The notes: generated from the sequence alone by a model not told the origin. A stretch of 64,000 nucleotides of DNA from an uncultured Elusimicrobia bacterium (GCA_964508565.1 CAZDUB010000005.1:9756-73755), one strand, 5' to 3'; shown: positions 2 through 23,335, counted from the first letter of the stretch. Made by a program: numbers and translations.

Positions 2-3000
2 TCAATACCTTCTGTCTCAATTACGCAACCAGCTGACCTTTCATACTGGCATACATTGCTTACAATTTCAGGTAATGCTACTGAAGATATTTCTTACATT
101 TCAACAGTAACCGTTGCAATACAGAGGTTAACAGGAACTGTAAAATGGTTTGACGGTGTTGGTTTTAATTCAGATACAAGAGTTGACTTGCTTGCTTCAA
201 CAAATACACTGCCTACTTGGACATTTGGCGGGTTTGGTTCATCGCTTGAGGATAACAATAGATACAGGATTTATGTTAAAGCGTACGATGTTGCAGGTAA
301 CCAAACAGCTGATGTTACAGCAACATTTACTGTTGACCGTTCAACACCTACATCTGTTATAATTTCACCTACTGCCGGTTATTATCCAACAATTTCTTTA
401 GTTACAGGCACTGCTTCTGACCCAAACGACTATGCTTCCTGGTGTAGTAGGATTAAAATTTGGGTTTACAATGTTACAGACAACAAATACTGGGATTTTG
501 ATGTAGGCAGTTGGGGTGATGTAGGTGTTGAAAAATATAAATACCTTGATTACACAGCAGCACAACCCTTAAACTGGCAGCAAAGTTTGTCTGGGGTAAC
601 TTGGGAGGAACCAAAAGTTTACAGGATCTATGTAAAATCACGTGATCGTGCATTAAAGTCAGACGATCCTACATATGCAGGTAACTGGCAAGCAGGAACT
701 GAAGAGTTAACCGGTGCTACAATGGTAGAGTTTATAATTGATAAAACCACACCTACTGCTTCTTTCACATTGCCTGACCCGTCAATTGCTGATTATTATA
801 GAAACTACAATTCTCTTCCTACAATTTCAGGTACTGCAAACGATGCTACATCTGGTATAAAAAAGATATGGATTATACTTAAAGATAAAACATTAGGTTA
901 TTATTGGAATGGTGGTTACACAGGTACAGGTGCTGACTGGGTTGACACTATACAAAGAGTTTTTGTGTATAACAACCCAACTCCAACACCTGGCACAGTT
1001 ATATGGTATTCTTCAATTACAACACTTACAACAAACAGAAACTATCACTTATGGGTAGAGGTTGAAGATGCAGCAGGAAACAAACTTTTAGTTTCAGATA
1101 CAGACATTGGCAACAACATTGGCGGGTTACACTTCAAGTTTGATAATAGAGCACCTGTTACTTATTTAAGTTTGCCCACACCTGATAGTTATTTCAATAC
1201 TGCACTTACACAGATTTCCGGTACTGTTATAGACGATAATATCTCTGCTGGTTCAGGTGTGAGTCAGTTAAGGTTAAAGATTACTCGTGTAGATGCTATA
1301 GGCACTACATGGTATTTCACAGCACCTGGATGGTCTAATACAGGACCTGCTGCTGAGGTTATTATAACACCTACACTTATAAATGAGGCGCAAAAACTTT
1401 ATGAGTGGAGTTATAACTTTACAGAATGGATTGACAACAACAAGTATATATTCTATGTCAGGTCAAGAGATAATACACACTTAACAACTACAACACCTAA
1501 CTGGGAAACTGAAAAATCGTTTGTTGCATATTATGATATTACTAAACCTACCTCAAAAGTTACAAGACCGCCGCTGTCTGCTGCTGGGTATGACAAAGAT
1601 ATTGCTACTATATCAGGTACAGCACAGGATGTAAACACTTGGAGAAGCGGTGTCAAAGAAGTTTATGTTTCAGTTAAAAGATTATCTGATGATTTATGGT
1701 GGGGTGGTTGGACTTCGCCTGGTTTTAATTCAGCAACGCAAGTATGGTCAACGGCTACCATTGTTGAGGTTTATCAAACATCCGTCACATGGGTATACAA
1801 CATTGGTAGTTCTGCTTGGAATGACACAACTACTTACTGGGTTATCTCAAGAGTTTTAGATAAAGCTGGAAACTACGAAGAAGACTGGTCAACAAATGTA
1901 TTTATATGTGATATCACACCACCAACTGCAGCAATTACTTTCCCTGAAGAAGATCAAACTCTTGATTACAAACCAACAGTTCAAGGAACTGCCTCAGACC
2001 CTGCACCTGGTCAACTTAAAAAAATTAAAGTTGCAATACAATATGTTGGTGCAACTCCTACTACAAATGGTATCCAACCTAACTATTGGTGGTCAAAACC
2101 AGAAGGTGTGCCAGGTAGTTATTCTGATTGGATTTATTCATCCCAACCTGTATGGCTTGAAAAAACAATTTCAGGAAACTGGAGTTATGATACAGCTTCT
2201 GTTGCGTTTGATGCTACAGTTTCACCTGGGTATCCATACAAAATTTATGTTAAAGCAGTAGACCAGGCAGAAAACGAACAGACAACTACTGCTGAAAGAA
2301 AGTTCTACTATGCTGCACCTTTACCTGAGACAAAGATAACTCGTCCTGCAAACGAAGCATATTATAAGATAGATGCTGCATTCTCTATTGAAGGTACTGC
2401 GAACCAGTATACTGAAAATTCCTACGGTCCTGATGGTAAAGGTGTGTGGGTAAGAATTTCTTCAGGACCTGGATTTACAACATACTGGAATGAAGATTCG
2501 CAACAATGGTTGAGTTATTCTACCTGGAACTGGGTGAATTTAAATGAAGCAGTGACACCAAAAACTTGGGCAAGGTTGTTTAGCCAGTCAGCTTTTATTG
2601 ACGGAGTAAGATACAAAGTTGAATCCCGTGGTTATGGTCCCGCTGGACCCGAGCCTGATACAAATATTGAAGAAGTTTTCTTCTATTGTGACAGAACTCC
2701 ACCTTCCGGTGCTCTTACAACACCTGTTGATGGAGGGCATTACCAGTCAATAACTTCAATTGCTGGTACTTCTTTTGATACTTCTCCAGGAATTATAGAT
2801 TCTGTAAAAGTAAGAATAAGAAAGTTTGTTTCGCCTGACAACTACTACTATGCAGGTGGATACTGGACAACTGATCCAGGCGATCCTAACATATGGCGTC
2901 CTGCAGTTGCTAATGACGGTACATTTAATTCAAATAACGAGCCATGGACCTACACTGTAGAGTTTCCAACCGAAGCCTGGAAGGACCAGATGGTGCATTA

Positions 3001-6000
3001 TATACAAATTCGTGTTTATGATAAATCCAAAGAAGGTGGCAATGTATATACATCGCCTGAGATTTCTGTTGTGATTGACCGGACAGCGCCAACTTCTGGT
3101 TTGATATTCCCGAATTTAGCATTGCACAACTCAATTCCAGCTATAACAGGTACAGCAGCAGATACACCGCCTGGTCAATGGAGTGAGGTTAATATAAAAA
3201 TTAAGCGCGAAGGTGCAACTGAGACAAGATACTGGACAGGACCACCTTCAAACTTGTGGTCTTTAACTGAACAGTTTGCTTCAACTCAACCATTTACTTA
3301 TTATCAGTCGTCTTGGACATATAGTGGTGTGGCTTGGCAGTCAGGGTTTAAGTATACAATTATTACAAAAGCAAAGGATAAAGCAGGAAATGAAGAAACA
3401 GAACAGGCAAGGTTAACATTTATTTACGAGACAAAACCACCTGTTTCAGTTGTTGCTTTTTCACCATATCCTGAAGGTGTTAAACTTAATAGTTTGTCTG
3501 TTATAAGTGGAACTGCTGATGACTATCCGGATTCTGCTGAGGCAATGTATGCTACTGGTGTTTCTACATTTGAAGTAGCAGGTGGGTTTAACCAAGGTGT
3601 GCAGATTGCTTTAAGACAGCTTGCATACCCATCAACATATTACGGTAAAGCTGTACCTGCTGGCTGGAACAAGCAAGAGCCAGAATGGATTTATGTACAC
3701 TATTCATCAGCAACTAAGAAATGGTATATTGAAAACACAGAACTTGGTACATTTACTGGTCCTAGTGACCCACCGGATGGTATCTATCAGGTTATACCGA
3801 GAACAAATGACAATGCTGGAAATTTTGAAGTTGTATTTAACACAAGGACATTTATATGGGATACTACATCTCCAACATCACTTACAACCTATCCATCAAG
3901 TGGTTCTTATGTTGCAACTTTGACAAAAATTACAGGTACTGCAGATGAAAATCTTGCAGGAATTGATAAAGTTTATGTCTGGATTTTAGACCAAAATGGT
4001 AACTACTGGAATGGTTCTGGTTGGTCTTCTTCTGAAAGTTCGTTTACAGTAGTAATGTCTGGTGAGGTTGGTATATCAACATGGACTTTAAATACTTCAC
4101 CTACACTTACTGATGGTGCTACTTATTATATAAGAACGGTTGCAAAGGACTTAGCTGGGAATTTGCAGACAAATTACACAGAGATAAAATTCATCTGTGA
4201 CCGTCAAGGTCCTACTGTTTCTATAGTTGAACCAGTTGATACTACACCGCTTGATGCTTCAACTCCAAGGTTGTCTGTCTTGACAACAATAAGTGGGACT
4301 GCAGCTGATGTGGGTGTTGGTAGTATATCTGAGGTACAATATAGAATTAAAAATATCCGTCTCGGTAATTACTGGGACGGAAGTGGGTACTTGATAACTG
4401 ACTACAATATTCCTGAGTCAGATAAAGAGACAGCATGGTTTATCGTCCAGACAACTGTTACACCTGCGTATTCTATTTGGTTTGTTACACACTCGTTTAT
4501 AACTGATGAACAATACTTAGTTGAGGTTCGTGGTAAAGATACACTTGGAAATTATTCTGTTTTATATTCAACTATAAGTTTCACATTTGATACAAACATA
4601 CCTGTTTCCGCGATAAGTTTTCCATATAACACTACTGTCAGAACTATTTCAGGCGGGATTTATGGTAGCTGTCAAGACAGCGGTATTAACTTCCCAGGTA
4701 CAGTTACACAAGTGAGATTGGCAATTAAGAGGTTGTCTGATGGTTGGTGGTGGAGCCATACTGATTCTACATTTACTGCTACACAACCTTCACCACCTGA
4801 TGGGTATGTTTTAATTACTCCTGTTGGGAATAGCTGGAGTTATCCAACTATTACAGATGCGCATCTTACAAGTGGTACTTCCTACTACATTACAATAATT
4901 TGTCGTGATAACGCACTACCGCCAAATCAACAAAGTTGGTTTGTTGTATCCTCTACATTTACTTTTGATAACACACCACCTAATGTTGTAATCCAAAGAC
5001 CACCTTCTGTCACTCCTTACTACAACCAGACAGGGCTTACAGTAATCTCAGGTACAGCAGTTGATGCCACCTCACAAGTACAGGCGGTACAGATTAAGAT
5101 ACAGCGTTCTTCTGATGGTAAATGGTGGATTGATACTAATGGCGATGGTATCGGTGAAGGTGCGGATAACGGCTGGGCGGTTTCAGGTTCTGTTGAGATA
5201 CCTTGTGATATTTCAACACTTCCAACTTGGAAGTATTCTTTAGCAAACTTTGTAGCAAATCATGGGGTAAGATACGATGTTTGGGCGCGTGCTTGGGATG
5301 TACCAGGCACAACCTCAAGTTGGGTTGGGCCACAATCTTTCATTTATGATGTTGGTGTGCCGACAGCTGCTGTTTTTTCACCTACAAATGAAAGTTTTGT
5401 AAATACACAGATTGCGACAATTTCAGGTACAGCATTGGATGAACCAGCAGGGATTGCTTCAGTAGAAATAGCAATTGCTTCAAATCCTGTAGCACCTGCT
5501 GGTTCCTGGTGGGATCCGAATACACAAAGCTGGACTGCACAGAATGAAGTTTGGTTCTCAACAAATGTTTCGTATAACTATATTCCAACACCAAATGTCT
5601 GGGTTTCAACAACACCACCGCTTGAAAATGGTAAGAAATACTTTATAAGGTTAAGAACTACAGACCGTGCAGGTAATGTAAGAATACAGGATTCAATTAA
5701 ATTTACATACGATGCAACACCGCCTACAATTGTTTTACAAGAACCTCAAGGCCACGGGCCTTCTAATAATTATGAAGGTCCTAACACATTGCCTATAATT
5801 TCAGGTACTGCAAATGATACATCACCTGGTGTCATAGCATCTGTTAATGTTTGGATTACAACAAACCCTGCAAGCCCATGGTATTGGAACGGTACTTCCT
5901 GGCAGGACACTGAATATTCATTTAATGCTGATATAACTGGCTTACCTAACTGGAAGCTTGAAAGTACAGTTTATAACAATCCTTGGCAGCACGGTGTTAC

Positions 6001-9000
6001 CTTTAGAGTTATCTCGAAAGCGTACGATTCTGCTGGGAATCCTTCAGGTGAGGTTTATAAAGATTTTGTTTATGACGCAGCTGTACCAGTATCAAGTATA
6101 ACTTATCCAAGCTCAAACATAAATATAAGGTCTCTTACTGTAATTTCAGGTACACATTCAGATGCACATTCTGGTATAAAAAGTGTAAAAGTTGCAATTA
6201 GGCATCCATCTGGAACTTTCTGGAATGGAACATCTTGGGTATCATACGATCCTGCTACATGTTGGTTAGATGCTGTTGTTTATCAAACAAGTTATGTGTT
6301 TACAAACCTGCCAACTTCCTGGGATGACAGAACTGTTTACAGGTGTTATGTTCGAGCAGAAGATAATGTTTCAAACATAGAACCAGTACCACCTGATTGG
6401 TTGACAGCAGGAGTGCCATTTAGAATAGATTATTCTTCGCCGACATCAACAGTTTCAGACGGAACTTTACTTTCAGGGACTACTGTTTATCTTAAAGGTT
6501 ATATAACCTCAGTTGCAGGTACTGCTACTGATTTAACTGGTGGTAGTGGTGTCTCTGAAGTAAGGATAAGAGTAAGAAGGTCTGATGGGCTATATATGAA
6601 CGCTGCTGAAAACGACTGGACCACTGATTCTTCGTTTAACATATTAGCTTCCGGTGCTGAAAGCTGGTCTAAAGTATTTAGTTCACCAGGAATGCTTGAG
6701 GATGGTTATTGGTATGAGATAGAATCGAAAGCAAAAGACAAAGTTGTACCTGTTGCAAACGAACAGACACTTTTTGTTCCTGCAAGGTTCTATGTTGATA
6801 AGTCATCACCTGTAGCTGTTGTACAATATCCTGGCAACAACATACCTAACGATTTACACTATAACTGGTCAAGTTTGTTTAATATTTATGGTACAGCACA
6901 GGATGTGATAGTTGGTGGTGGCCAACCATCTGGAGTAAGCAATGTAGCGGTCGCGTTGATGCGACTTTCTGACAATATGTACTACACATCTACTGGATTT
7001 GACTCTTCAGTTTCAAGTTTCCATGTGTGCAACCTGTCACCATCTGCAACATACTGGTGGTATAGTTTTAACCCGTCATACTTGACTGACAATACATCTT
7101 ACACAGTTGTTGCACGTGTGTATGACCGTTCTATGAACTATCAGCTGTCAACTGTGAACTACTTCGTATATGATACATCTGCACCAGTTTCTTTGGTAGT
7201 TTTACCACAAGAAGGTGTGCTTTATGATAACAATACTTTACCAACAGTTTCAGGTACAGCAGTAGATTTAGTTTATGGTGGTCTTGGTAGAGTTGTTTCA
7301 GTAAAAATTACACTACAGCGTTCACCTTATGGTACAAACGATTACTGGACAGGTACAACTTGGGGTGCACAAACTTGGCTTGATACTACTGGATTATATG
7401 TTGGTAATACATATTATTGGTATTATGATGCAAGAAATGTTTTATGGAATGTAGATGAGACAGAGTATAAAATTGTTGCTGTTGCAACTGATAAAGCAGG
7501 TAATACTGAATTGGCACCGCAGACAAGAACATTTAGGTTTAGACCTTTACTTCCAAATTCTTATATAACACTACCACAGAACAACAGGTACTACTCTACA
7601 TTGACACAGATTGCAGGTACTACTGAGAATGCAGAATCTGTCCGTGTTGCGATATTAAGAAACTCTGATGGGTATTATTACACAGGTTCTAATGTTGAAC
7701 CTTACTGGACAAACACAGAAACTTGGCTTGTTCCTGTTGGTACACAGACATTTAGTTATACAATTCCTGCTGGTGATAGTTTATGGGTTTATGGTTCATC
7801 ATATACTGTAAAGTCAAAAGCAAAATCACTTTATGGTGATAGATGGCAAGGTGATTCAGGACAACTGCCAATAACAGAATCTGTTTTCTGGTTTGACAAT
7901 GTTGCACCTGTTTCTGTTGTAAACTCACCGCAGGCAGGAACACCACATTATAATAACTTGACTCTACCAACTTTGTCAGGAACTGCTTATGACGAACTTT
8001 CTGGTATTTCCAAAGTTGAGTATTCACTACAAGATTTAACAGCAGGGACAACATTCTGGGATGCTGCTACACAATCCTGGGTTTCAGCAGTAGAGTTGTG
8101 GAACACTACAAACTGGACCTCACCTGTATGGAGTACATATATTCCAGCAGGATATTTCACAGATGGGCATACTTATAGAGTAAAATCAAAAGCTTATGAT
8201 AACACACTACCTTCACCTGGTAGGATTGAAGTACCATCTGCAGGAAGAGATTTCATATACGATATAACGAAACCAACAGCGACAATTGTAAGGCCACCAC
8301 TTGACGGAGTCGCTTCTATCCCGTTTGGAAACTTACCTTCATATAAGACAGGTTTTGTTTTAACAGGAAACTTAGTTGACAAATCTCCAGGTGTTGTTGA
8401 AAGGGTTGAAGTTATGATCTATGACTTTGTTGCAAACAAATACTATACAGGTAGTGGTTGGCAGTCATCACCTGTTTGGATTTCTACTGAGACAACTGCT
8501 TTGTTTAATGTGTGGAGCTCTTCTTGGAGTTATAATGTTGGCAATATCTGGACTTCAGGAAGAAAGTATTTAGTTGTAGCAAAAGCAAAAGATAAAGCAG
8601 GAAATATTCAGGATATATTTGAAGTTAATATTTCTTCTAACCAGTTTATATTTGATACAAAAGCTCCGCAGACAGTTTTGACTTTACCTTCACAACAATA
8701 TGTTAATACACTAACAGATATTCAAGGAACCTCAACTGATGTAACAGAGACATATTATGTTGGTATGGATCCTAACCAAAACAGAGTAAAACTTGTAATT
8801 TACAATGTGACAGATAATACTTACTGGAACGGTTCAAACTGGCAGGTTGCTGTTTCAACACAAAATGCAGCAAGGGCAGGTCTTAATTGGGATAGCTGGT
8901 ATTATAGTGGTGTAAGCTGGATATCAGATAAACAGTATGAAATAAGACACTGGGCAGTGGATGATTTAGGCAATGAGGAAGTACCGTCAGTTAAGTTTAC

Positions 9001-12000
9001 AATAATCTATGATACCACACCACCGACTTCACAGATTGTTTATCCTGAAAATGATAAATTCTATAAACAACTTACAGCAATTTCAGGTACAGCAGATGCT
9101 CAACTTTCAGGGTTGGCAGGTGTTAAAATACAGGTTTCTTCCTGGACAGGGACAGATTGGAGTGTGCTTGCAGGGTATGATTTTGTTTCTGTGAACAATG
9201 TTTATCAGTCATCTTGGAGCTGGACTGTTGGGTTGCCTTCTTGGGTTTCTGGAGTAAAGTATAGGTTAATAAGTAAAGCAGTTGATAGAGCTGGTAATTC
9301 AGAGGTGGTTTTGTCAACTGTAACATTTACTTTTGATACACAGGCGCCAACTGTTGCAATAAACCTACCTGTTGGTGGTAAGTCGTACAAGAATTTGCCA
9401 CAGATAACAGGTACAGCATATGATGCTCAGTCAAGAGTAAAGAAAGTTGAGTTATGTATAAGAGATTTAACATATTCTTCAACTTACTTCAATAAAGCTA
9501 TAAATGATTGGGTGTATAGTTCAGAAGATCTATGGTTTGAATCTGATGCGTTTGTTGAAGCACAAAGTGTTGTCTGGACATTTACACTACAGACACCTGC
9601 TACAACTTGGGCTGATGGCAGAACATATGAAGTTAAAGCACGCGCGTATGATGCAGCGTTGAATACTTCTACAGTTGCAGGTCCTTGGACATTCAAGGAT
9701 GACAAAACACCACCTGTAACAAGAATTACACCTTATCCTGTACACAATGCATTTTATGACAATATACTTACAATTTCAGGTACTGCACATGACGATACTG
9801 CTGGAGTAAGGAAAATTTATGTAAAACTTGAAAGAGTTGCAGATGGATATACCTGGGATTGGAATGAAAAGAGGTGGAAGTCAGGAAATTACTACACAGA
9901 GATAAGTTATACAGAACCATACATGCTTGATAGAGTATGGAGTGTTGCTGTTTCAACAACGGATGTAGACAACAATCCAACTTGGGGAGACGGCTTGAGT
10001 TATAAAATATACAGTTGGGCTTCTGATGGAGTTGTAAATGTTGACCAGCAAGAAACTGTGTTTGAAGATGGTAGAAACAGAATAACAGTTTTAATTGATA
10101 GGCAGTCACCTCTGTTCTATGTTCAAGCACCGCTTAATAATACTTACTATCGTTCACTTAATACAATATCTGGTACATGCAAAGACCAGGGACCTTCAGG
10201 AATTAAAGAAGTTTATGTTGCTGTTCGTGTAGAAGGCGGTAACTTCTGGAGTGGTAATGCGTTTGATAGTGATTCACCTGATATTAACCCGAACGCTTGG
10301 AGACCAGCTACACTTTCGCCAGCAGCTACTTTCTTCTACTTTACAGAAATAGCAGACGCTGGTGGTTGGGTATCAGGTGGAAGGTATAGGATTTTTGTTA
10401 AGGTAGTAGACAATGCTGGTAATATAAATGCTCAGACAGATTGGGTATCTGGTGGCAACTTCTTTAGGGTCGACTGGATACCACCGACATCAAGGATTGT
10501 AAATCCTCAAACTGTAGAGTATAGAACTACTGCTTTAAGTTTAGTTACAGGTACTTGTAGTGACGGCGTAGGTGTTGGTGTTGAAAGAGTAAGGTTGTTT
10601 ATACAAAGAGCAGAAGATGGAAAGTATTGGTCTGTTACAGCAGGAGATTGGTCAGGTTCTGTTGATTCCTACTCAGTTTATCCTACAGGTATACCACCAG
10701 ATCAACAATGGCAACAGGATGTCTCAGCTGTTGCTTGGAAGCCAGGATATAAGTATCTTTTGTGGTCAATTGCAAGGGATGCCGTAACATTGCCACCGCC
10801 AGCTTACAACTATGAAGTAAACTGGGCTACAAATGTTTACTACTACGATCCACACAGTCCATTAGTATCAATACAACTTCCAGCAAACAACAGCTGGAGA
10901 CGAACACTTACAACAATATCAGGTACTGCTTGTGACCCAACATATACTGACCCAACTGTAGGTGTTCCGGGTACACCTTCTAATATTGACAAAGTTGAGA
11001 TTTCAATACAGAGATTATCTGATGGATATTACTTCTATGGAAGTTCGTTCTCTTTAGGTTCACAAGCATGGCTTAACACCACAATTTATGAATATCAACC
11101 TACATCTTGGAGCTGGACATATTCAATGCTTGATTCTTATTGGACAGATAATACATCTTATACAGTTGTTGCACGAGCATATGATAAAGCTGGGAATCTT
11201 TCATTCTATGCTACCAACTACTTCATATTTGACACCTCAGCACCAACTTCTGCTATAACTTATGGTGCTCCTACTGATGAAACTAACCAACCAATAGGTT
11301 ATCTACCATCATATCCTGTAAGAACTACACTTACATCTATAACAGGAACAGCAGCTGATTATGGACTTGGTAAACCTGACAAGGTTGAACTACAAATAAG
11401 ACGAGTTGACCCAACACCGGTGAAATACTTAGCTCCAGATTTGACATTTGTTGATTTCACAACAGCTGTGGTTGTTAATGTAAATCCTGACGGTAGCTGG
11501 AGTTTTGACACTTCAGCAGTTGGTTGGTTGTCTTTCTCAAACTATGAAATGCAATCAAGAGCAATTGATAAAGCTGGCAATGTTGAACAAGTATGGTCGG
11601 CTGTAAGAACATTTAGGATGGAGCCAGAGAGAGCAAAGTCAGTAATTACTTCTGTTGAGAATGGTAAGTTTTACCAGTCAGTTTCAGCAATAGGTGGTAC
11701 AGCAACACAAACACCTCTTACTGAAAGGTTGGATATAAGAATTAAACGCGAAACTGACAGTAAGTATTGGTCTGATACTTTAGGCAATTGGGTTTCTTAT
11801 TCAACTTGGGTTGTTATAATCTCACCGACACTTCCTAACTGGTCATATTCGCATCCAAGTTTGCAGTTTGTGCATGGTTCAAGTTATACTGTTGCGTCAA
11901 AAGCGTGGAGGTTATCTCCACTTGTAGCTGAATACGATACAGAACCACCGGGACCTGCACCAAATGTAATGCCTACATTCTGGATTGACAATGTTGAACC

Positions 12001-15000
12001 TACTGTTAGCTTGACATTACCTAACAAAGCATATGTGAACAATTTACCAACAGTTTCAGGTACTGCAGATGATGCACTTGCTGGAGTTGACAAAGTAGAA
12101 CTTTATATCCGTGATATAGCGCAAGGCACAACTTACTGGTCACAGTATTTACAATCCTGGGTGGACTATTCAACTGCTTGTGTTGCTAACTACAATAATA
12201 TTACTAAAGAGTGGATATTTACAGGTTCAACACCTACCTGGGTGAACTTAAAACAGTATGGTATTAAAGTAAAAGTTTATGACAGAAGTGTTCCACCGAA
12301 TACATACGAGTTGCCTGAGTTTACATTCTACTACGATTTGGTAACACCAACTGCTACAATTACTTCATTGTTACATGGTTCAACAATGTCAGTGGTTAAC
12401 GAAATTTCCGGTGAGTACTTTGATTTACCTTCAAACTCTGCTGTTGACAGAACAGCATCGCCTTCACCTGTTGAAGTAAAAATCCAAGCATTAGGTGGTA
12501 CTTATGCAGGTAGGTACTGGAGAGACAATCCTGCTGGGTGGGTGTTGTCTGAGACTTGGAACAATTCAACAGATACTGTTAAAGTTTATACATCTTCCTG
12601 GACCTATATAAAACCAACAGCGCTTGATTGGGAGAATGGAGTTTGGTATTCAGTAGTAGTAAGAGTAAAAGATATTGCAGGAAATCAACAGTCAACATTT
12701 GTTGTTGGAGTATCATCAATTTCATTCCTTTGTGACAAAACACCACCTGAAACTACAGTTACAACACCTGGACAGACATATCTTTCAGTACCACCATTGA
12801 ACTTAGCTGGTAGTTTAACCGATACACTTTCCGGTGCAGCAACTGTTTACTTAAGGCTGTGTTTGTGGCTGGCTGACGGCACTACATATTACTGGACTGG
12901 TGCTACCTGGTCTTCAACAACTGTTGATGCTACAATTATAGCTGAAGAGTTGTCACCTAAATATGTACCACCGTTAGCAACTTGGTCAAATCCATTCCCA
13001 GCAGAAGTAACCTTTGCAGATATAGGTGGTTATACTGATAAGAAATACAATATTCGTGTTCAAGGTGTAGATGGTGCAAAACCATATGGTAATATTGAAA
13101 GTTGGGATACTGGGTTTGACTTCTATATTGATACTACACCACCGGTTTCACAGATTAACTCTCCAGTGAACAACTCAAAACTTTCTAATTTGAGCTTAAT
13201 TTCAGGTACAGCTAATGGATTCTTCTGCGGCTTACAAGAAGTAAGAATACAAATTTCTTCTTGGACAGGATCTTCTTGGTCAGTAGTTTTAGATTGGACT
13301 GACACAGAAAACGATGTAACTTCACCTGGTAATATTACAACAACCTGGTACTACACCATACCAGCAGGTCTTCTACAAAATGGAGTAAGATATAGAGTAA
13401 TATCCCGTGCAAGAGATAATGCTTCAAACTACGAAGTTAAGTTATCAACAGTAGAGTTTATATTTGACATTTCAGCCCCTGAAACAGTAATAATTGTACC
13501 TGATAGGGCATATTACGGTTCACAGACAACGCAACTTCCAACAATTTCAGGTACTTCACGCGACCTGCCAACTTCACCACTTGTGAACTCCGGAGTTGAC
13601 AAAGTATTTATAAGAATCTCAAGAACACCTGATGATGGTCTTCCATATTGGAGTGGATATTTAAGACAATGGGTTTCATACTCAACTTGGAGTGTTTGTG
13701 TTGATACATCACCTTGGTATTATACGATGTTTGAATCAAGTTGTAGTTGGGAAGATGGAAGGATGTATACAGTTAACACTCGTGCAGTTGATTTTGCAGG
13801 AAATCTTTCCGGCTGGACGACTTATACATTTAGGTATGATGAAACACTTCCACGCTGCAGTATCGTAGAACCAAACAAAAACTGGGTCTCAGTTTTAACA
13901 ACAATTTCAGGTACAGCTTATGATTGGCCATCTTTGTATCCTTACAAGTCAGGATTAAGAAAAGTTGAATTAGCAATTCAAAGAGTAGATATTCAGCAAT
14001 GGTTTAATCCAGCAACTGGTGGATTTACAGAACTCACAACATATTGGTATTTAATAAACACATATACAGCTGAACTTTCAACTGTAAGCTGGATCGCAAC
14101 AGGTGTTTCAACACCTACTTGGGAAAATGGAAGAACTTATTTGATAAAAGTTCGTGCATTTGATATGTCTGAAAACGAATCAGTACATCAATCTATAACA
14201 TTTACATACGATAGAAGTGAACCAACACTATCAATTACAAAACCTGACCAGCCTGCACACAATAGTTTGCCGACAATATCAGGTACAGCAAACGATACTG
14301 CTGGTGGAACAGCTGGTGAGATTGAATATGTAGCTTTAAGAGTAAAAGATGTAACATTAGGTAGATACTACAACAGAGCCATAGATGATTGGGATCCAGC
14401 ATTAACAGCAGAACAGGCATGGTTTGTTGCAACAAATACTTCTACTTGGGAAGTATGGTTTGCAACATTTACAAAATGGATTTCTGGTAGGTACTTTGAA
14501 GTTAACGCTTATGCAAAAGATAAATCAGGCCTTTATTCAACAGTGTTTGCCACAAAGACATTCTTATACGATGTAGAACCACCTGCTATTGTTGTTACAA
14601 AACCAAAGACAGGCGAATTCTGGAGAACACTCGGTACAATCTCCGGTACAGCACAGGATATGCCATATCCTGGGAACAACTCTGGAAGTGGTTTAAAGAG
14701 AATTGCCGTAAGGAACAACTTGACAGGCCTTTGGTTTGATGGGACAAACTTTACTGCCGGAACACCACAAGCGGCATACTTTAGTTTAGGTCCTGGAGAT
14801 GGTGACTGGAGTTTCTACAATGCAACACTTGCTGGTATACTTGAATCCGGTGTTTCTTACTATATAACTACACAAGCGTTTGATTACGCAGGGAATGAAA
14901 CTGGTTGGTACAATGTTGGTTCATCAACATTTGTGTTTGACAACACAGTTCCAACTGCTTATGTAGTAATTCCACAGATAACAGAGACATATTACAGAAC

Positions 15001-18000
15001 ACTGCCTACAATTTCAGGTACTGCAGAAGACCAACAACCTCAAGCTAACAGGTTAACCTCAGGAGTAAGAACCGTTGAACTTACAATACAAGATGTGACA
15101 GCTGGTGTTTTGGAGACAGATAAATACTGGACAGGAACTGACTGGACAGGAGTAACTCCTACAACATTTACGGCTGTATCATCTGATAATTTTGCAAACT
15201 GGTACTCTACTGCTGTACCTAATACTGCATGGAAGCAAGGACATAGGTATAAGATTACAATATGGTCTTATGACAAAGCGTTGCCTTTACCTGGTAATCA
15301 ACAAACACCTTTTGATGTCTACTTCAGATTTGATTCATCAGCACCTATTGTTGCGTTTACAAACATTACAAACAACTCGTTCTATAAAACTCTACCACAG
15401 ATTTCAGGTACAACTGTTGACCAACCACTTGCACCTCTCTATCGTTCAGGTGTAAACAGGACAGAAGTTTTAATAAAAGACAACATAACTGGCAACTTCT
15501 GGGATGGAACTTCTTGGCAGGCAACAGAACCTACTGACTGGCCAGATGCAAGTTATGTTTCTGGTTATGACCCACAATCAGTGGTTGATTGGTACTTTAA
15601 TACGCCACAGTTTGAAAGTGGTAAAGAGTACAATGTCTCTGCTAAGACAGTTGACAATGTGGATATTTATTCTTCTTCAATAACTTATGTTATAAGATAT
15701 GATACTCACTCACCAACCTCAGTTGTAACAAGGCCTGAGGAAGACAAAGGATACTCAACTGCTGACCCACTTATTACAATCTCTGGTACAACTTCTGATT
15801 ATATGCCATATGCAGGATTTAAATATTCAGGTGTGGCTTCTGGTGGTATAAAAATCTCTGTAAGGTTAGACGAACCGCCATATGATCCGGTCCTACCTTC
15901 AGGATTAGATAAATGGTGGGACTATACAACAAACAGCTGGGTGCCTTGTAAAGAAGTTTCAGCTGATCCGTCAGCAAAGTATGAATCAGACACACTTGGT
16001 ACTGTTGAGATTTATAATCAAGTTGAGAATGTCTATTATTGGAGAATTTCAGCACCAAGTTGGATTTCAGGAAAACGCTATGTGATTAGAGTATGGTCAC
16101 AAGATTTAGTTGGCAACAACATTGATCCAAATTATGCATGTGGTAAGTCAACAAGGGCATTTACAGTAGATATTCAACCGCCTGTTTCAAGACCAGTAAG
16201 GCCTCAAAATGGCGGGTTTTATAATGCTTCTACAAATAGGTTAACAACAATTTCAGGGACAGCAGTTGATGATTTACCAGATAATGTAAAACAAACAGAG
16301 ATAAGAATTTACTATCAAGATGGCAGCAACATATACTACTGGAACGGCTCTTTATGGCAACTTGGTATTTCAAGTTGGATTGTGTGTGCTAACTTAACTT
16401 CAGGTGGTACATGGTGGGCATATATTCCTGGAGTTTCTGGCAACGAGATTGCATGGGTTTCAGGAAAGACATATTATTTAAATACAAGAGCAACTGATAA
16501 AGCAAACAATGTTGAGGTAAACTTCTCAACGATCACATTCTATGTAGATACTGAAGCACCGGTTGTTTATATTGATAAACCACAACATTTAGCTGGATAT
16601 TCACCTGTAAATCCATTAAATAGGTTTGAAGGAAGATGTAATGACGACTTTACCGGTGTAAAGAGTGTGTTTGTTGCATTACAAGATTTATCAAATGGTA
16701 ACTGGTGGCAAGGTGGTGCTTCCTGGGGAACAAGTCAGGTATGGTTTGAACTAAATCATACAAATGGATACTTGTCTTCAGCTGCTACCTGGTGGTACTA
16801 TCCAGCGCCTACATTTACAAGTGGAAGAAACTACATGCTTGTAGGTAAAGCAGTTGATAACGCAGATAATGAGCAAACTGTCTTTACCGTAGGGCAGTCC
16901 TCAAATGTGTTCTCGTACGATGACCAACCACCAACTGCAGCAGTTACAACTCCTCAATATGACAAAGCTTATTCTTTAAACAAACCACTTACAACAATTT
17001 CAGGTACAGCTTATGACGACTTCAGCGGTGTTGTTGGAGTTAAAGCTAGAATTTGGTTCTTAGGAGATTCTTCTAATTGGAGTTTACCTGGAGGAACTTC
17101 ATATTATTGGACAGGTATAAGTTGGTCTTCACAATCTGTTTATGAACTTGCTTGCTCTTCTTTAACAGCAGATTGGTCGCAGTGGTATTATACAGCTTCT
17201 TTTGACTGGAAAAATGGCAAAGTCCATTACATAGATGTTCAAGCAGTTGATTTAGCACAAAACAAACAATCTTGGGGTAGTTCAACCACAAGGTTTAAGT
17301 ATGATACTACTGTGCCAAACATAACAATTGTTATACCACAAGCCGCATCATTCTGGGGGCCAGCAAACAACTTGCCTACACTTTCAGGTGTTGCAAATGA
17401 CGAGTTTAGTGGTATAAACCGTGTAGTTGTACAGATTAAGAATGAAACAGATATACTTTACTGGAACGGTTCTTCCTTTACACCACATACTACAAACTAT
17501 GTCTTAGCGACACTACTACAACCAGGTGCACTTTCAACAGAATGGCGTGTTTACTTCCCAACAGAATCCTGGATTACTGATAAGTATTATTCAGTAAAAG
17601 TAAAATCTGTGGATGAAGCAGAAAATTCTTCAAGTGAAGTTACAAATACATTTACACATGATTCTACTTTACCTAAGACAACACTTTATGTGCCATCAAA
17701 GAGGTTCTACAACTTCTTAACAATAATTTCAGGTACTGCTTGGGATGAAGGTCCAGCTGCACCTGCAAGGTCAAGGTTGAAAGAAGTACGGCTTGCAATA
17801 CAAAACGATCCAACTGTTAACAACTTATGGTGGGATGGTCAAACATTTAGTAAGACACAGCCAGAATGGTTGTTATGTTCAGGAGTTACTGAAGGGACTG
17901 ATTCTGACGACTTCTACTTCACAGGTTCAACACCAACCTGGCAAGATGGCAAGTCTTACTTAATACTTGTAAGAGCACAAGATAGGTCGCTAAATTATCA

Positions 18001-21000
18001 GTCGCCTGTGACTTCCTTTACATTTACATATGATATTACACCGCCAACGGTAAAGTTAAGAGTTCCACAGGAAGGAAGCGGATTTAGGTATTCATCTCTA
18101 CCCACTATTTCAGGTACATCTTCAGATAATGCTCCAGGTGAGGTAAGTATTGTGTATTTAAGAATTAGGGAAAATAGTGGATTGTTAAGATATTGGAACA
18201 ATAATACACAACAGTTTGACAGTGAATTACAACCAGAAAATGCATGGTTTGTCGCAATAACAACTGCGACTCCAGAATGGTCTGTTTGGTTTACAACATT
18301 TACAAATTTACCTTGGCAGGATGGTATAGATTATATTGTTGAAGCAAAAGTTTATGATAAAGCAGGCAACCTCTGTGTAAACTATTCAACTTCTGTGTTC
18401 ACTTACGATATCACACCACCGCAGTCAGTTGTAAACTTACCTACAAATAACTTCTATAATCATCTTTCTGTGATATCAGGGACAGCAAAAGAGTTTGCAG
18501 GTGGAACAGTTTCAGATGTAAAAGTTTTTGTTAAGAGATTAACAGATAATAGATGGTGGGCAACATCTGGGAACTGGCTTACAACAGAAACGCCTTTACC
18601 AAACACACTGCTTGTTCAGATAGGAGCTGATACCTGGAGATGGGAAAGAACAGATACAGAACTTTCAAGTTATTTAACCTCAGGCACATCTTATTATGTT
18701 TATACATTTGCAAGAGATAACGCAATACCTGTAAATCAAGAATCAATACCTGGAGCTGGACCAAAAACATTTGTTTGGGATGTAACAGCACCGACATCAA
18801 CTGTAATATATCCACAAGATGGCGGTGCCTATAGAACAGCAACACTTACAACAATCTCAGGTACACAACAAGATGTTTCGCCGTTTGCAGGTGCGTTAGT
18901 TGCTGGTGTTCCAGCAGTAGCTGGTGCGGTAAAAGTTTCAATACAAGATTTGACATATCCATCAACATACTGGTCTTCTATTTTGAATCAATGGGTTGAA
19001 GGTGTAGTATGGAATGACGCAGTTGTGTACCCATCAAGCTGGGTATTTAATGTATCAAATGTTAGCTTTATAAGTGGCAGATACTACAAGATTCGTTCAA
19101 AAGCAATAGATGCGGCATTACCTTCAGGAAATGACCAAGAGACACAATTCCCACAAGCAGGCTACACAATATTGTTTGATACACATCCACCAGTTGTTTC
19201 AGTTACATATCCTGCAAATGACTCTGTTGTGAACTTTATCCCAACTATAACTGGTACGGCTTCAGATTCACCTACAACCAGCTCAGGAATTGATAAAGTT
19301 CTTGTTGCAATAAGAGAAATTGAACCTGTGGGTCTATGGTGGGACCCAGCAACTTCTTCGTTTACCTCCTCTACACCCAAGTACTCTACTGCAACTTGGA
19401 TTCAAGGGCCACCAGCAAGGTGGGAGTGGCAAGATTCTGGTATTAAATTGAGGGATGGTTATAAGTATTATGTACAATGTTATGCAAGAGATAAAGCTGG
19501 AAATGAAAGCGGTGTTTCTACACCACTCTTGTTCAGATACGACATTTCAGCACCACAAGTGGTGATAACTTTACCATCCAAAGCATGGTATAATTCACTT
19601 TTAACAGTTTCTGGTACAGCAGCTGATTATGGTTATTCTGAAGCAGGAGTCACAGAGGTTCTTGTTACTTTCCAAAAGAACCCGCCAGCTGGATTGTGGT
19701 GGGATGGCGTAACATTTAGTAAGGGTACAATTGATGAAGCTGTCTGGATAAGCTGCGATATATCATCGCTACCAGAATGGAAGTTAACCTCTTTACCTGC
19801 TTGGGAGAATGCTGTTACATACAAAGTTGTGGCAAAAGCAAAAGATAAAGCGGGTAACTTTAGTGAAATTTATGAAAGGATATTTACATTTGACAATATC
19901 CCACCAACTTCAGCTGTTACAAAACCAGAAAGTGGCAACTACTATAGCAGTATTTCAGAAATTTCAGGTACTTGTTTTGATGCAAACAGTGGTGTTGAAA
20001 AAGTTGAGATACGACTTGTTGAGAAGGATGTTTTAACAGGGAACATCACTCGTTGCTGGTATGGTTCTTTAGGTTGGCAGATAACAGATATTTCAAGTTG
20101 GGTTGTTGTAAACAATGTATGGCAGTCATCCTGGAGTTATACTGTGCCAATTATTTACACTTCAGGAAGAAAATATGAGATAACCTCTCGTGCTTGGGAT
20201 GTAGCTGGTTCTTCAGAGACAACTTCAGAGATACCTTCTTATGATGTTTGGTTTATATACGATGCAGAGAAACCTAACTCTCAAGTTAAACTACCAGAAG
20301 ATAATAAGTATTACTGGAACTTATCTACAATTTCAGGTACAGCAAAGGATAATCCTAATGAACCACCGGTTGGTGCTGGCATACAAAAAGTTGAGGTTGC
20401 AATACAAAAACTTACAGGGACAAACGCAGGAAAATGGTGGGATGGTGCTTCGTTTAGTTTAGATACTCCAAAGTGGGACGCTTTGGTTGTCTCAGGTTCT
20501 ACGACATGGACTGCGACATTTAATAACAATGTCTGGGAAGATGGTATAAGGTATCTTGTTGTTTCAAGAGCAACTGATAAATCTCAACCAGCGAATGTAG
20601 AAAACACATTTACTGTTTCAGTAAACTCGGTTACATTTATCTGTGATAAGTCAACACCTACAAGCAGTATCACATGGCCAACTAACCTTTTAGTTACAAA
20701 CTCCATTACTACAATTTCAGGGACTTCACAAGATCCCATTGTGGGAGGTAGTGCAAGTGGTGTAAGAAATACAGAGATTTCAATTCAGTGTATAGCACCA
20801 ACAACTGGTTGGTACAATGGTGTTGACTTTAGTAGTACATCACAACAATGGTTTAACACAACCTCGCTTTCACCTTCAAACACATCATGGGTCTATACAG
20901 GCTTTGCTTCTGCTTTAGTTTCACACTCAACTTATGTTGTATATAGTCGTAGTTTTGACAATGCATTACCTTTGCCTGGAAATTATGAAACAGTTTATTC

Positions 21001-23335
21001 TTCAAGGACATTCGTTTATGATATAACAAAACCAACATCTGTTATAAACTTGCCATCACTTTCTTACTATACAGACAATCCAGCTGCTTCACCAATGATG
21101 CAGCTTCCTTTAATTACAGGCACAGCATTTGATCAGTTTGGTATATCAAAAGTAGAAGTATTAATAAGGGACCTAACTTCAGGTTCAACTTATTGGACAG
21201 GAAATTCTTGGGTTGACTATGAGCCTTCTGACTGGCCAGATGCCGCTGGTACAGAGTTGTGGCAGTTTACTTCAACACCGACTTGGGAGTCTGGAAGACA
21301 GTATAGGATTTATTCAAAAGCAAGAGATGTTGCAGGAAATATTGAATCTCGTGGTCCTGCTACAGCTTCTGTTTATGATAGAACATTTATCTTTGACAAC
21401 ACACCACCTGTTTCAAGGATAACATATCCTGAGGATGGTAAGTATTACATATCGCCAACTGTAATTTCAGGGACTGCAGATGATGTTTTAGCTCCTACAG
21501 GTCCGAATAAGTCAGGAATACTTTATGTGAAAGTTATTATAAAACGACTTGATACAAACCAGTACTGGGATGGTTCTGCATGGAGTGGAAATGTTACAGA
21601 ACTTGATACAGTATGGGTTGAAGGAGAAAAAAGATGGTATAGAAACACAGGACTTCCAACATGGGAAGACGGTGTACAATATCAGATACAATGCAGAGCA
21701 TATGATAAAGCAACTAATCCAGAGCCAGAGCCACTACATCCAGGTTCAACCTGGAGATGTGATAAGACAGCGCCACAAGTTTATTTACAAACACCGCTTC
21801 ATAGTTTAACGATGCCACCTGATAAATACTATAGACTCCTTCCAACAATTTCAGGTACTGCGTATGATGCAAATCCTTTAGCCAAAGTTGAAGTAAGGAT
21901 TTGGAGTTATATTGATGGTGGTTTCTGGGATGGAAGCGGTTGGAATATGGGATTACCTCAAGAGAATGCTTGGTTTGTTGTGTCTTCTGCCACACCGCCG
22001 TCTGACTGGACAGTGTGGTATACCACCTTTACTGCTTGGCAGTCAGGATATGTATACAGAGTTGAAGCAAGGTCTTGGGATTCTGCAGGGAATTATTCAA
22101 CAGTTTATTCAACAGCAATATTTAGATATGATACAACTAAACCAGAATCTTATGTTTCATTCCCGCCAAATAGAGCATTTATCGGTGCATTGTCAACAAT
22201 ACAAGGTACAGCAAAAGATTTACCAGAGCCTTCTGGCTCATATTATGGTAATTCTGGGCTTTATAATGTAAGAATTGCTGTAAGAAATAATAAAACAGGT
22301 TATTGGTGGTCAGGAACTGGCTTTACAGCAAACTCTTTAACAGAACGACCTGTAAATGGTCTTTCAAACTGGACATTTGACGAGATAAACTCTGCATCAT
22401 TAGAATCAGGTACTTCTTATTATATTACAACTCGTGCTGAAGACAATGCTGGTAACAGAGAAGATTGGTTCAACATTAGAAGCTCAACGTTTGTGTTTGA
22501 CAACACACCACCGGTTTCAAAAATAGAGTTTCCACAAAATAACGCTGCATATAATACACCATTTACTATACTGTCAGGAACTTCAGTTGATGCAACAGCT
22601 GGTGTAGGTAAAGTTGAGATTTCTATACAGAACCTTACAGATTCTGGTACACCATATTGGAACCATGATTCAAATATATGGGAAGCAAACGCGCCTGTTG
22701 AAAGATGGATTACAATCTCAACTTCAGGTGTTGGTGGTGAAGTTGTAAGATGGATATATCAAAACGCATCAATCTACTGGGCTGATGGTAGAATTTATAG
22801 AGTGCGTGTGCGTGGTTATGACAATGTTTCAATACCAACTGCCAATGTTGAACAAGATCCATTTATATCTTCCCACACATTTATATACGATACAACAAAA
22901 CCGACCTCAACAGTAGTTCAGGTTCGTGTTGCAGGTGAATGGAAGAATATTGAAGAATTGTATTTTGAAAATGTTGAATACATTGGTGGTTCAGCAGTAG
23001 ATAATTTGAATCCTTTAAACAACAGTGGTATTGTACCAAACAGCGGTGTAAAGATTTGTCTGATAAGGGATGAAAACGAAAATGAAGTTATAGATACAGA
23101 TGGTTCCGATTTAATTTACGACTTTGTAAGTTCAACCTGGACAGCTTATTATGGTACAGTTGGTAGCAACAACTGGGGTGTCTGCAGTGGTGGTGAACCT
23201 TCATGGCAGTCACCTGCATTTACAACATCTACCTGGAAGTCAGGAAAACTTTATTTTGTAAGGTCGCAAGCAACAGATAGAGCAGGTAATACACAGGATT
23301 ATGATGTCTCCAACTGGAAGAGATTCTATGTTACA
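2..23335 (+). repeat. Type-A array: ~62 tandem Trp-rich Ig-like modules (~125 aa, ~375 nt period) within the giant CDS
   Basis: I counted 62 occurrences of the I/V-S/T-G-T-A-x-D-type motif (ISGTAND, ISGTAYD, VSGTAVD, ITGTAAD and so on). Consensus by eye: F.yD.t.P.s.i..P......y..l..ISGTA.D..SGv..V.v.i......yW.G..W......W.y.....W..G..Y.v..rA.D.AGN.e. A nucleotide core ACAATTTCAGGTAC recurs, for example at 821, 13541, 13901, 15008, 16994 and 21845. The N-terminal half of the module resembles bacterial Ig domains of the Big_7 type; this family assignment is from memory and has not been searched. Confidence 0.8.

Follow-up and report, generated by a model that had tools for sequence, protein, structure and literature searches.

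A rod of tandem bacterial Ig-like (BIg) domains is shared by the closest described systems, SiiE of Salmonella (53 BIg domains, PDB 2yn3/2yn5) and the RII extender of MpIBP of Marinomonas primoryensis (PDB 4p99), and 82 stalk families, Big_3_2 included, have been listed for fibrillar adhesins (Monzon and Bateman; PMC8286594, PMC9210967). Elusimicrobiota proteins of at least 10,000 amino acids (aa) have been reported, with the suggestion that giants often serve in adhesion to other cells; the “Archaeovorins” of Omnitrophota are made of HEAT and TPR repeats plus enzyme domains, and the “dockerin-type” giants of dockerin and TSP3 repeats (West-Roberts et al., bioRxiv 10.1101/2023.11.21.568195). 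Neither type among these Omnitrophota/Planctomycetes-Verrucomicrobia-Chlamydiae (PVC) giants is built of Ig-like arrays, unlike the protein described here, which is encoded in a 64,000-nucleotide (nt) stretch of DNA (C5:9756-73755, “the window” hereafter) from the metagenome-assembled genome (MAG) of an uncultured hot-spring Endomicrobiia (Elusimicrobiota) bacterium. A single frame is open over 15,168 aa of the window (5′ end open, Table 1); its start lies ~9 kb upstream of the window edge, at the ATG at C5:733, and the full gene (18,177 codons; 18,176 aa, 2.00 MDa, isoelectric point [pI] 4.8) represents 3.3% of the 1.65-Mb assembly. We consider it likely that the repeated first half of the window protein (zone A, made of “type-A” modules) is the main stalk, or extender, of a 2.0-MDa secreted cell-surface fibre.

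To delineate the repeats, a hidden Markov model (HMM) was self-built from 55 seed segments and searched against the protein with hmmsearch. This identified 62 consecutive modules (M01-M62) at aa 1-7779 of the window protein, each with an E-value of 2e-8 to 1e-31, and nothing comparable to type-A modules elsewhere in the window protein. An earlier sequence-only reading of the window had proposed about 62 such modules at positions 2-23335 with a period of ~375 nt, and both figures stand: the count is exactly 62 (nt 2-23338), and the mean module length is 125.3 aa, or 376 nt (range 108-156 aa). The window edge is not where the array begins, the full protein having 78 modules (aa 937-10788), 16 of them upstream of the window. 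Pairwise identity between modules, measured over match columns, averages 27% (range 14-50%), below the 30-50% previously estimated.

The scaffold by which the modules had been recognized, ISGTA.D / yW.G..W / D.AGN with a Pro-rich junction, is kept across all 62. In the first half of the module, G25 is present in all 62 copies, followed by P4 (57), P11 (55), T26 and D29 (54 each), V37 (51), I23 and G33 (49 each), A27 (42), and S24 (40), while the aromatic segment includes Y/W49 (51 of 62), W50 (47), W56 (44, plus 17 with Phe), G52 and W63 (34 each). The same segment continues with W76 (57) and W85 (37), and the module end has D99 (59), Y91 (58), N103 (53), F113 (49), D116 (47), G88 (43), A101 (41), and A97 and G102 (39 each). 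The consensus also has L20, I41, and Y115, and a junction pattern F.YD..PP......P. Tryptophan accounts for 4.14% of residues in zone A, vs. 1.4-1.6% in the remaining protein, 1.03% in the genome's open reading frames (ORFs) of 200 aa or more, and 0.53% in 20 downstream ORFs. The enrichment that had been noticed is thus real, at 5.2 Trp per module, with 236 of the 317 Trp at six scaffold columns; the module singled out as an example at ~9020-9350 (M25, Table 1) has indeed 5 Trp in 108 aa.

Structure prediction with AlphaFold2, using the modules themselves as the alignment, gave all-beta models of 9-10 strands for both the di-module M55-M56 (predicted local distance difference test [pLDDT] 93.6, predicted template modelling score [pTM] 0.87) and the single module M55 (pLDDT 93.0). 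Compared with known structures by Foldseek, the di-module matched tandem FN3 structures (CbhA, LAR, and L1CAM, E-value ~1e-7), while for the single module no PDB entry passed E ≤ 1e-3, and the closest ones were the Deinococcus HPI S-layer Ig-like domain, FN3-like domains and a bacterial Ig domain (template modelling [TM] score 0.45-0.60). Top matches overall were FN3, Ig, and S-layer domains, and a tyrosine-corner-type residue of the F strand, Y91, is found in 58 of the 62 modules and 88% of modules family-wide. As modelled, the module is an Ig/FN3-like beta-sandwich (E-set superfamily), in line with the Ig-like nature first proposed. The best-superposing FN3/BIg domains (91-100 aa) cover only part of the 128 residues of the folded module; modules span 117-125 aa, and the Y/W-W-x-G-x-x-W segment falls in the part (columns 47-67) that accounts for this additional length. 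The distinctive aromatic insert noted in the sequence is borne out.

Family models respond to zone A only collectively. For the Pfam family Big_13, the scores of 32 modules added up to 72 bits although none of the stretches was significant by itself, summed or partial scores were also obtained for Big_3_2, Big_3_3, and Big_7, and no single module in 7,778 aa was significant against any of these four. NCBIfam returned nothing useful for the modules. This agrees with the expectation of the sequence-only reading that they would not map cleanly to a characterized family. The four families, Big_3_2 (PF12245), Big_13 (PF19077), Big_7 (PF17957), and Big_3_3 (PF13750), nevertheless belong to the E-set clan and the same fold class, and the 122 positions of the Big_3_2 model are similar in length to a type-A module. 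Two relatives of the protein, P0150 and P0133, do pass Pfam Big-family models: P0150 matches the type-A profile with an E-value of 3e-128 (8 copies) and Big_3_2 with 1.7e-28 (3 significant stretches over profile positions 32-118), which links the two families. In contrast, a relative with 10 type-A copies (P0055) has no Pfam match at all. On these profile comparisons, the module is a distinct and divergent, Trp-rich bacterial Ig-like subfamily, distantly related to Big_3_2, Big_13, and Big_7, and its Trp scaffold is captured by no curated model in Pfam or NCBIfam.

Against the PDB, a profile search aligned only the C-terminal half of the module (W.y...W/L..G.Y.v..A.D.AGN), to the BIg domains of SiiE (E-value 2.5e-4), with weak alignments of the module half to repeats of adhesins of the RTX type (5irb at 0.04, 4p99 at 0.32). 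Like SiiE and MpIBP, the protein is acidic, with conserved Asp and Asn residues at the domain poles. It differs from them in module length (117-125 aa vs. about 90-104 aa), in the additional Trp-rich segment and the ISGTA.D strand B, and in its termini, with a putative N-terminal signal and a tail resembling the C-terminal domain (CTD) of type IX secretion system (T9SS) cargo instead of an RTX/type I secretion system (T1SS) signal, which was not found here.

The module is widespread. When the profile was compared to 1.84 billion proteins, the matches at E ≤ 1e-3 comprised 11,764 cluster representatives, of which 1,382 remained at E ≤ 1e-30, and a single protein can contain as many as 55 copies. 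Within a set of 1,962 modules taken from 137 non-orthologous proteins (out of the 150 top matches), the scaffold is retained throughout, with G25 in 98%, W50 in 77% (94% aromatic), W/F56 in 95%, W63 in 57%, W76 in 93%, W/L/F85 in 80%, Y91 in 88%, D99 in 95%, and N103 in 83%, and Trp makes up 3.7% of these modules. The Trp-rich scaffold is therefore a family signature and is not specific to this gene. The NCBI entries for these relatives are named “Ig-like domain repeat protein” or “hypothetical protein”, and come from Elusimicrobiota, Endomicrobiia, a “WOR-3” MAG and [Eubacterium] cellulosolvens. Within the phylum, the module was detected in 56 of 201 sampled genomes (28%) and 42 of 76 genera. 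The longest module-bearing open frame (19,358 aa) belongs to the same genus, and others in the phylum reach 18,913, 18,641, 18,319, 17,970, 17,343, and 14,455 aa. One family of the same class (f2, including G002, G008, G022, and G031) has nearly complete genomes of 1.1-2.0 Mb lacking the module, which may reflect a loss in a host-associated lineage.

Downstream of zone A, the window protein continues with a distinct repeat (zone B, Table 1) of ~125 aa per unit, with consensus LPGE...GK.GTP..Q.AG..F.V.V..D.YWN and no Pfam match. The same order of zones is found in P0005, P0020, and P0145, giant proteins that are otherwise unrelated, so that the succession A then B looks like a conserved architecture.

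Collinear orthologue fragments were found at 74% identity (P0043, aa 40-2954), 66% (P0101), 47% (P0012), and 42% (P0020, whose alignment of 7,022 columns covers both zones A and B), while off-diagonal, non-collinear alignments are only 23-30% identical. Since collinear orthologues (42-74%) are far closer to each other than paralogous modules are (27%), each module has its positional orthologue, and the array is older than the lineages and has not been homogenized. The array is thus ancient, with every module conserved at its own place. The repeats of MpIBP, by comparison, are nearly identical among themselves. Neighbouring modules are even less similar than random pairs at variable columns (0.135 vs. 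0.146, p-value 0.008), and dissimilar neighbours are a pattern known in other tandem-domain proteins.

A weak increase in similarity was also observed between modules 10-11 positions apart (0.155 vs. 0.146, p-value 0.045), with few pairs responsible. The unusually similar pairs (F54-F64, F55-F65-F75, F56-F76, and F41-F52, at offsets 10, 11, and 20) all lie within full-protein modules F35-F76 (window ~nt 5700-22500). This periodicity fits old multi-module block duplications; a strong super-repeat was dropped as an interpretation, the excess at offsets 10-11 being slight.

The same data bear on whether the reading frame is real. Misassembly of a repeat, or decay of a gene whose frame is still open, could be suspected from an assembly of 80 contigs and 88% completeness, known from sequence runs that are DNA. 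Yet exact DNA repeats of at least 30 nt, which could mislead an assembler, are absent from zone A, so that misassembly is unlikely, and no stop interrupts the frame over 54.5 kb. Other assemblies contain collinear orthologues that are 42-74% identical, frames of 14,000-19,000 aa recur in the phylum, and all modules are significant and retain the fold-defining residues. A non-functional or artefactual ORF is thus extremely improbable and already close to refuted.

To place the tryptophans in the fold, covariation was computed over 2,235 modules as mutual information (MI) with average product correction (APC); a mean-field direct coupling analysis (2,233 modules) was discarded, its top pairs being all i,i+4/5 gap or register artefacts. 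The MI map corresponds to an antiparallel G-F-C-C′ sheet, with C-F pairs (43-89, 40-94, 38-96, 42-92, and 36-98), F-G pairs (94-110 and 90-114), and C-C′ pairs (40-49 and 42-49), in addition to A-G, A-B, and B-E pairs. The core face is made up of hydrophobic columns (37, 39, and 41 together with 91, 93, 95, and 97), and columns 36, 38, 40, and 42 with 92, 94, 96, and 98 are polar or charged. Column 76 is coupled to G25, and Tyr at this position accompanies F39 (47% vs. 2%) and I/L95 (39% vs. 4%). W85 is exchanged with Leu and Phe (41/25/14%) and is aligned to a Leu of SiiE. Because W76 compensates in volume with core columns and W85 is interchangeable with Leu and Phe, both behave as ordinary core residues; covariation would place W76, and the substitution pattern W85, in the main core.

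In the aromatic segment, column 49 shows compensation with column 40, a position directed away from the core (W49 with A40, 47% vs. 9%; Y49 with R40), and column 56 joins this pair (F56 with A40, 33% vs. 8%), so that at least one conserved aromatic residue is on the non-core face. W63 pairs with R/K96 (79% vs. 25%), an association which may be a subfamily effect, the W-rich columns being positively intercorrelated. W50, W56, and W63 fall within columns 47-67, a segment without counterpart in minimal FN3/BIg domains, and columns 50, 56, and 76 are W/F/Y in 94-98% of ~2,200 modules. The Trp-Arg ladder of cytokine-receptor FN3 domains offers a possible model for this arrangement.

The sequence-only reading had likened the Trp-rich modules to carbohydrate-binding surfaces, and asked whether Trp were on the surface or in the core. 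A rod that would itself bind glycans or cell wall multivalently has to be weighed, in which columns 49, 56, and 63 and Arg/Lys at 40 and 96 would form an exposed aromatic strip on every module, and polysaccharide, peptidoglycan or another cell's envelope would be bound with high avidity. The position of column 49 opposite the main core on strand C, its covariation with columns 40 and 56, the near-strict aromaticity of columns 50, 56, and 76, and the location of the segment in a part that minimal FN3/BIg domains do not have are all consistent with such a rod, and exposed Trp of FN3-like domains in chitinases do bind chitin. However, W76 and W85 behave as core, the W63-R96 link may reflect subfamilies, and no carbohydrate-binding module (CBM) or lectin family is among the Pfam or NCBIfam matches of the modules. 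Moreover, the same residues recur in modules by the thousand across diverse lineages and habitats, and a requirement of the fold accounts for this better than a shared ligand does. We thus regard a glycan-binding rod as unlikely: the carbohydrate-binding surface suggested for the modules is not supported by their sequences, and the role of the Trp appears to be chiefly structural. Also unlikely, in our view, is a more specific version in which the aromatic-cation strip (columns 49, 56, 63, perhaps 50, with Arg/Lys 40 and 96), repeated 78 times along a ~0.35-μm rod, would act as a multivalent envelope- or polysaccharide-binding ruler and not as a passive spacer; if true, the ~11,800 related cluster representatives would constitute a large unrecognized glycan-binding Ig-like family.

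The termini of the giant protein bear on its export and display. The protein begins with a hydrophobic segment (MESKTLQKIITKLITRIFLVLCIFGLMCYKLFA), a putative signal or anchor, within a head of ~900 aa (L060:733-3540) that precedes the stalk. No Pfam or NCBIfam match was obtained for the head (aa 1-939) at E ≤ 0.1, nor any match when 906 aa of it were used as query for related loci. About 12 W-(N/D/E/T)-G-x-x-W motifs were observed in this head (e.g., VWDGSWG, YWTGTGW, VWENGAW, IWNGTNW, VWNGSSW, and EWNGNDW), which are like the YW.G..W of the stalk modules, and by its sequence the head may be a propeller-like binding head. At the other end, the terminal beta-sandwich (Table 1) matches, below cut-off in every case, FlgD_ig in Pfam (E-value 1.2e-4) and the PorU tail (2e-6) and Por_Secre_tail (0.014) in NCBIfam, and could possibly be an export or anchoring signal. 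Its Por_Secre_tail score (16.9 bits in the genome scan, 15.3 bits otherwise) is below the 23-bit cut-off expected of T9SS cargo. The nonapeptide repeats and C-terminal T1SS signal that define an RTX giant adhesin were not found, with no HemolysinCabind/RTX match in the C-terminal 3,268 aa nor in the last 420 aa (Pfam, NCBIfam).

Elsewhere in the genome, at least 17 other proteins, many of 1,000-2,400 aa, have a T9SS-type sorting domain above cut-off, and several of the Por_Secre_tail proteins adjoin genes for PorV-like outer-membrane barrels of ~300 aa (C1:166287-167206, C8:23357-24231, C8:48403-49145, and C6:124787-128489). T9SS is established in the Bacteroidota/FCB group, to which the genome with these tails does not belong.

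For the stalk that we favour, the following organization can be proposed. The protein would enter the periplasm through its N-terminal Sec-type signal or anchor and be displayed on the surface through the C-terminal T9SS-CTD/FlgD_ig-like domain. With 78 modules of roughly 4-5 nm each, the stalk would extend ~0.3-0.4 μm and hold the N-terminal head away from the cell. Conserved Trp would serve chiefly to make up the fold: W76 and W85 would belong to the main core, and W50, W56, W63, and Y/W49 would stabilize an extra hairpin region after strand C that is lacking in minimal FN3. At the domain poles, the conserved acidic residues D29, D99, and D116, together with N103, may hold Ca2+ and thereby make the junctions stiffer, as happens in other giant adhesins; columns 29 and 99 do covary by MI, and the Pro-rich junctions look rigid in the two-module model (pTM 0.87). 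The protein shares with fibrillar adhesins a single chain, many E-set stalk domains, a distinct terminus and a putative anchor, and has the tandem stalk domains (78) expected of them. It departs from them in that its head holds no recognizable adhesive domain and belongs to no family, the type-A domain is outside the 82 listed stalk families, and 18,176 aa is a size extreme (PMC8286594, PMC9210967).

Several points weigh against this organization. The burial of Trp is drawn from covariation, and column 49, placed on the face of strand C opposite the core, could be part of an exposed aromatic patch. Possible Ca2+ binding is deduced from the conserved Asp and Asn and the acidic pI. The protein showed no identifiable adhesive or catalytic domain, and the head matched nothing in Pfam or NCBIfam. 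Export and anchoring are deduced from matches below threshold, and the search for SprA (TIGR04189) gave no response, its controls being equally silent. Finally, the runs matching the sequence are DNA only.

An alternative use of the same rods would be a surface coat or S-layer-like element, in which they would pack side by side through their polar/aromatic face into a sheath or mat. The best single-module structural match is the Deinococcus HPI S-layer Ig-like domain (8cka_B, query TM score [TMq] 0.54, E-value 1.6e-3), and the module has a conserved Arg/Lys/Glu face with a covarying, salt-bridge-like pair, column 96 being Arg in 78% of modules with E38. The structural match is, however, weak and generic, and a single 78-module chain with distinct head and tail resembles a fibre, not a lattice subunit, which makes this coat very unlikely.

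A core of 14-17 nt around the ISGTA motif had also been reported as kept at the nucleotide level, including synonymous positions. The commonest 14-mer of zone A is indeed ACAATTTCAGGTAC (encoding T-I-S-G-T), with 9 exact copies (Table 1), and the 11-mer ATTTCAGGTAC is found 17 times in the zone. Synonymous-codon shuffling (200 trials) yielded a mean of 1.4 copies of the 14-mer and a maximum of 5, and the 20 TISGT peptides would, given the codon usage, lead to 1.35 expected copies (p-value 2e-6). Codon bias in the core compared to background is seen for Ile23 (ATT, 65% vs. 45%), Ser24 (TCA, 80% vs. 41%), and Gly25 (GGT, 76% vs. 58%), with Ala27 adding to it, and the remaining conserved columns are mostly without codon bias. 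Between orthologues the core is not better conserved than its surroundings: in 16 modules of the 74%-identical orthologue, the same codon is used at identical residues in 53% of cases in the core vs. 54% elsewhere in the modules. As codon retention is equal inside and outside the core, the excess of copies is due to local codon choice, not to any conserved element of the DNA; the nucleotide core is genuine but modest.

Ser24 alone stands out, with its codon retained in 12 of 14 orthologous module pairs. Before Trp (TGG), 62% of two-fold degenerate codons have C as their last letter, vs. 34% overall, and the preference for TAC at column 49 follows from this general tendency. Codon-pair context was rejected as the cause of the core, failing for Ser24 TCA (80% vs. 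40% at other Ser-Gly pairs). Recent duplication or gene conversion behind the shared 14-mer was ruled out by the 27% identity of the modules and the lack of repeats of 30 nt or longer, and recent duplication also by the array predating the split from the 42%-identical orthologues.

The genes downstream of the giant gene are housekeeping ones (cyclophilin, DnaJ, RsmE, a MiaB-like radical SAM enzyme, acyl-CoA dehydrogenase, YmdB, XseA, KdsD, KdsC, and a lipid A acyltransferase). KdsD, KdsC, and the acyltransferase indicate a diderm with lipopolysaccharide, and the closest DnaJ sequences (80-85% identity) come without exception from Endomicrobia/Endomicrobiia MAGs. The DNA is present in hot-spring metagenome runs. 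GC content is 38-41% over zones A and B, dropping to 34% near the 3′ end of the giant gene, vs. 25-33% in the downstream housekeeping genes and 31.9% for the genome; the raised GC probably results from a Gly/Thr/Ser/Trp/Pro-rich composition. A HEAT-repeat protein of ~225 aa with an N-terminal hydrophobic segment is encoded 3 nt upstream of the giant gene (L060:52-729), in an ORF that reaches the contig edge (732 nt upstream of the giant gene). A HEAT-repeat gene occupies the matching position beside the 74%-identical orthologue (L001:2245-2910; 35% identity, E-value 5e-34), and the HEAT-repeat protein may be a co-transcribed partner of the giant protein. No c-di-GMP-type riboswitch was seen ahead of either giant gene: Rfam gave no match at E ≤ 1 in L060 1-1200, which takes in the 732 nt up to the contig edge, nor in L001 1-3300 (3 kb upstream of the orthologue), a chance snoRNA match aside.

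Table 1. Features of the giant gene within the window (positions in nt from the first letter of the window).
Feature	Position	Strand	Basis
Window part of the giant ORF (full gene C5:733-55263)	2..45508	+	ORF call
Type-A zone (zone A), modules 17-78 of 78	2..23338	+	self-built HMM
ACAATTTCAGGTAC, first copy	821..834	+	exact match
ACAATTTCAGGTAC, other copies (starts)	5417, 9770, 13541, 13901, 15008, 16994, 20327, 21845	+	exact match
M25 (108 aa, 5 Trp), also the top partial match to Big_3_2 / Big_3_3	9014..9337	+	HMM, Pfam
M55, single module, folded	20264..20647	+	AlphaFold2
M55-M56 di-module, folded: two beta-sandwiches with Pro-rich junction between	20264..21022	+	AlphaFold2
M62, final type-A module and the most diverged of them (20.6 bits), boundary to zone B	22898..23338	+	HMM
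Zone B, distinct ~125-aa repeat	23339..35800 (end approximate)	+	translation, relatives
C-terminal beta-sandwich, weakly FlgD_ig- / T9SS C-terminal sorting domain-like	45242..45463	+	sub-cut-off matches

What is new at the domain level is a large Trp-rich family of Ig-like domains not yet covered by a model, with its additional hairpin region, family-wide scaffold and positional orthology. More than half of a 2-MDa protein consists of one domain type without a dedicated Pfam or NCBIfam model, and with a curated family model, giant proteins now labelled “hypothetical” could be better annotated by the thousand. The array also offers a test case for the evolution of very long tandem-domain proteins, with its positional orthology, absence of homogenization and dissimilar neighbours, and another for the gain in stability in Trp-rich Ig folds. 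Should the aromatic face bind glycans, the stalk would itself be an adhesin, and “spacer” regions would have to be read differently.

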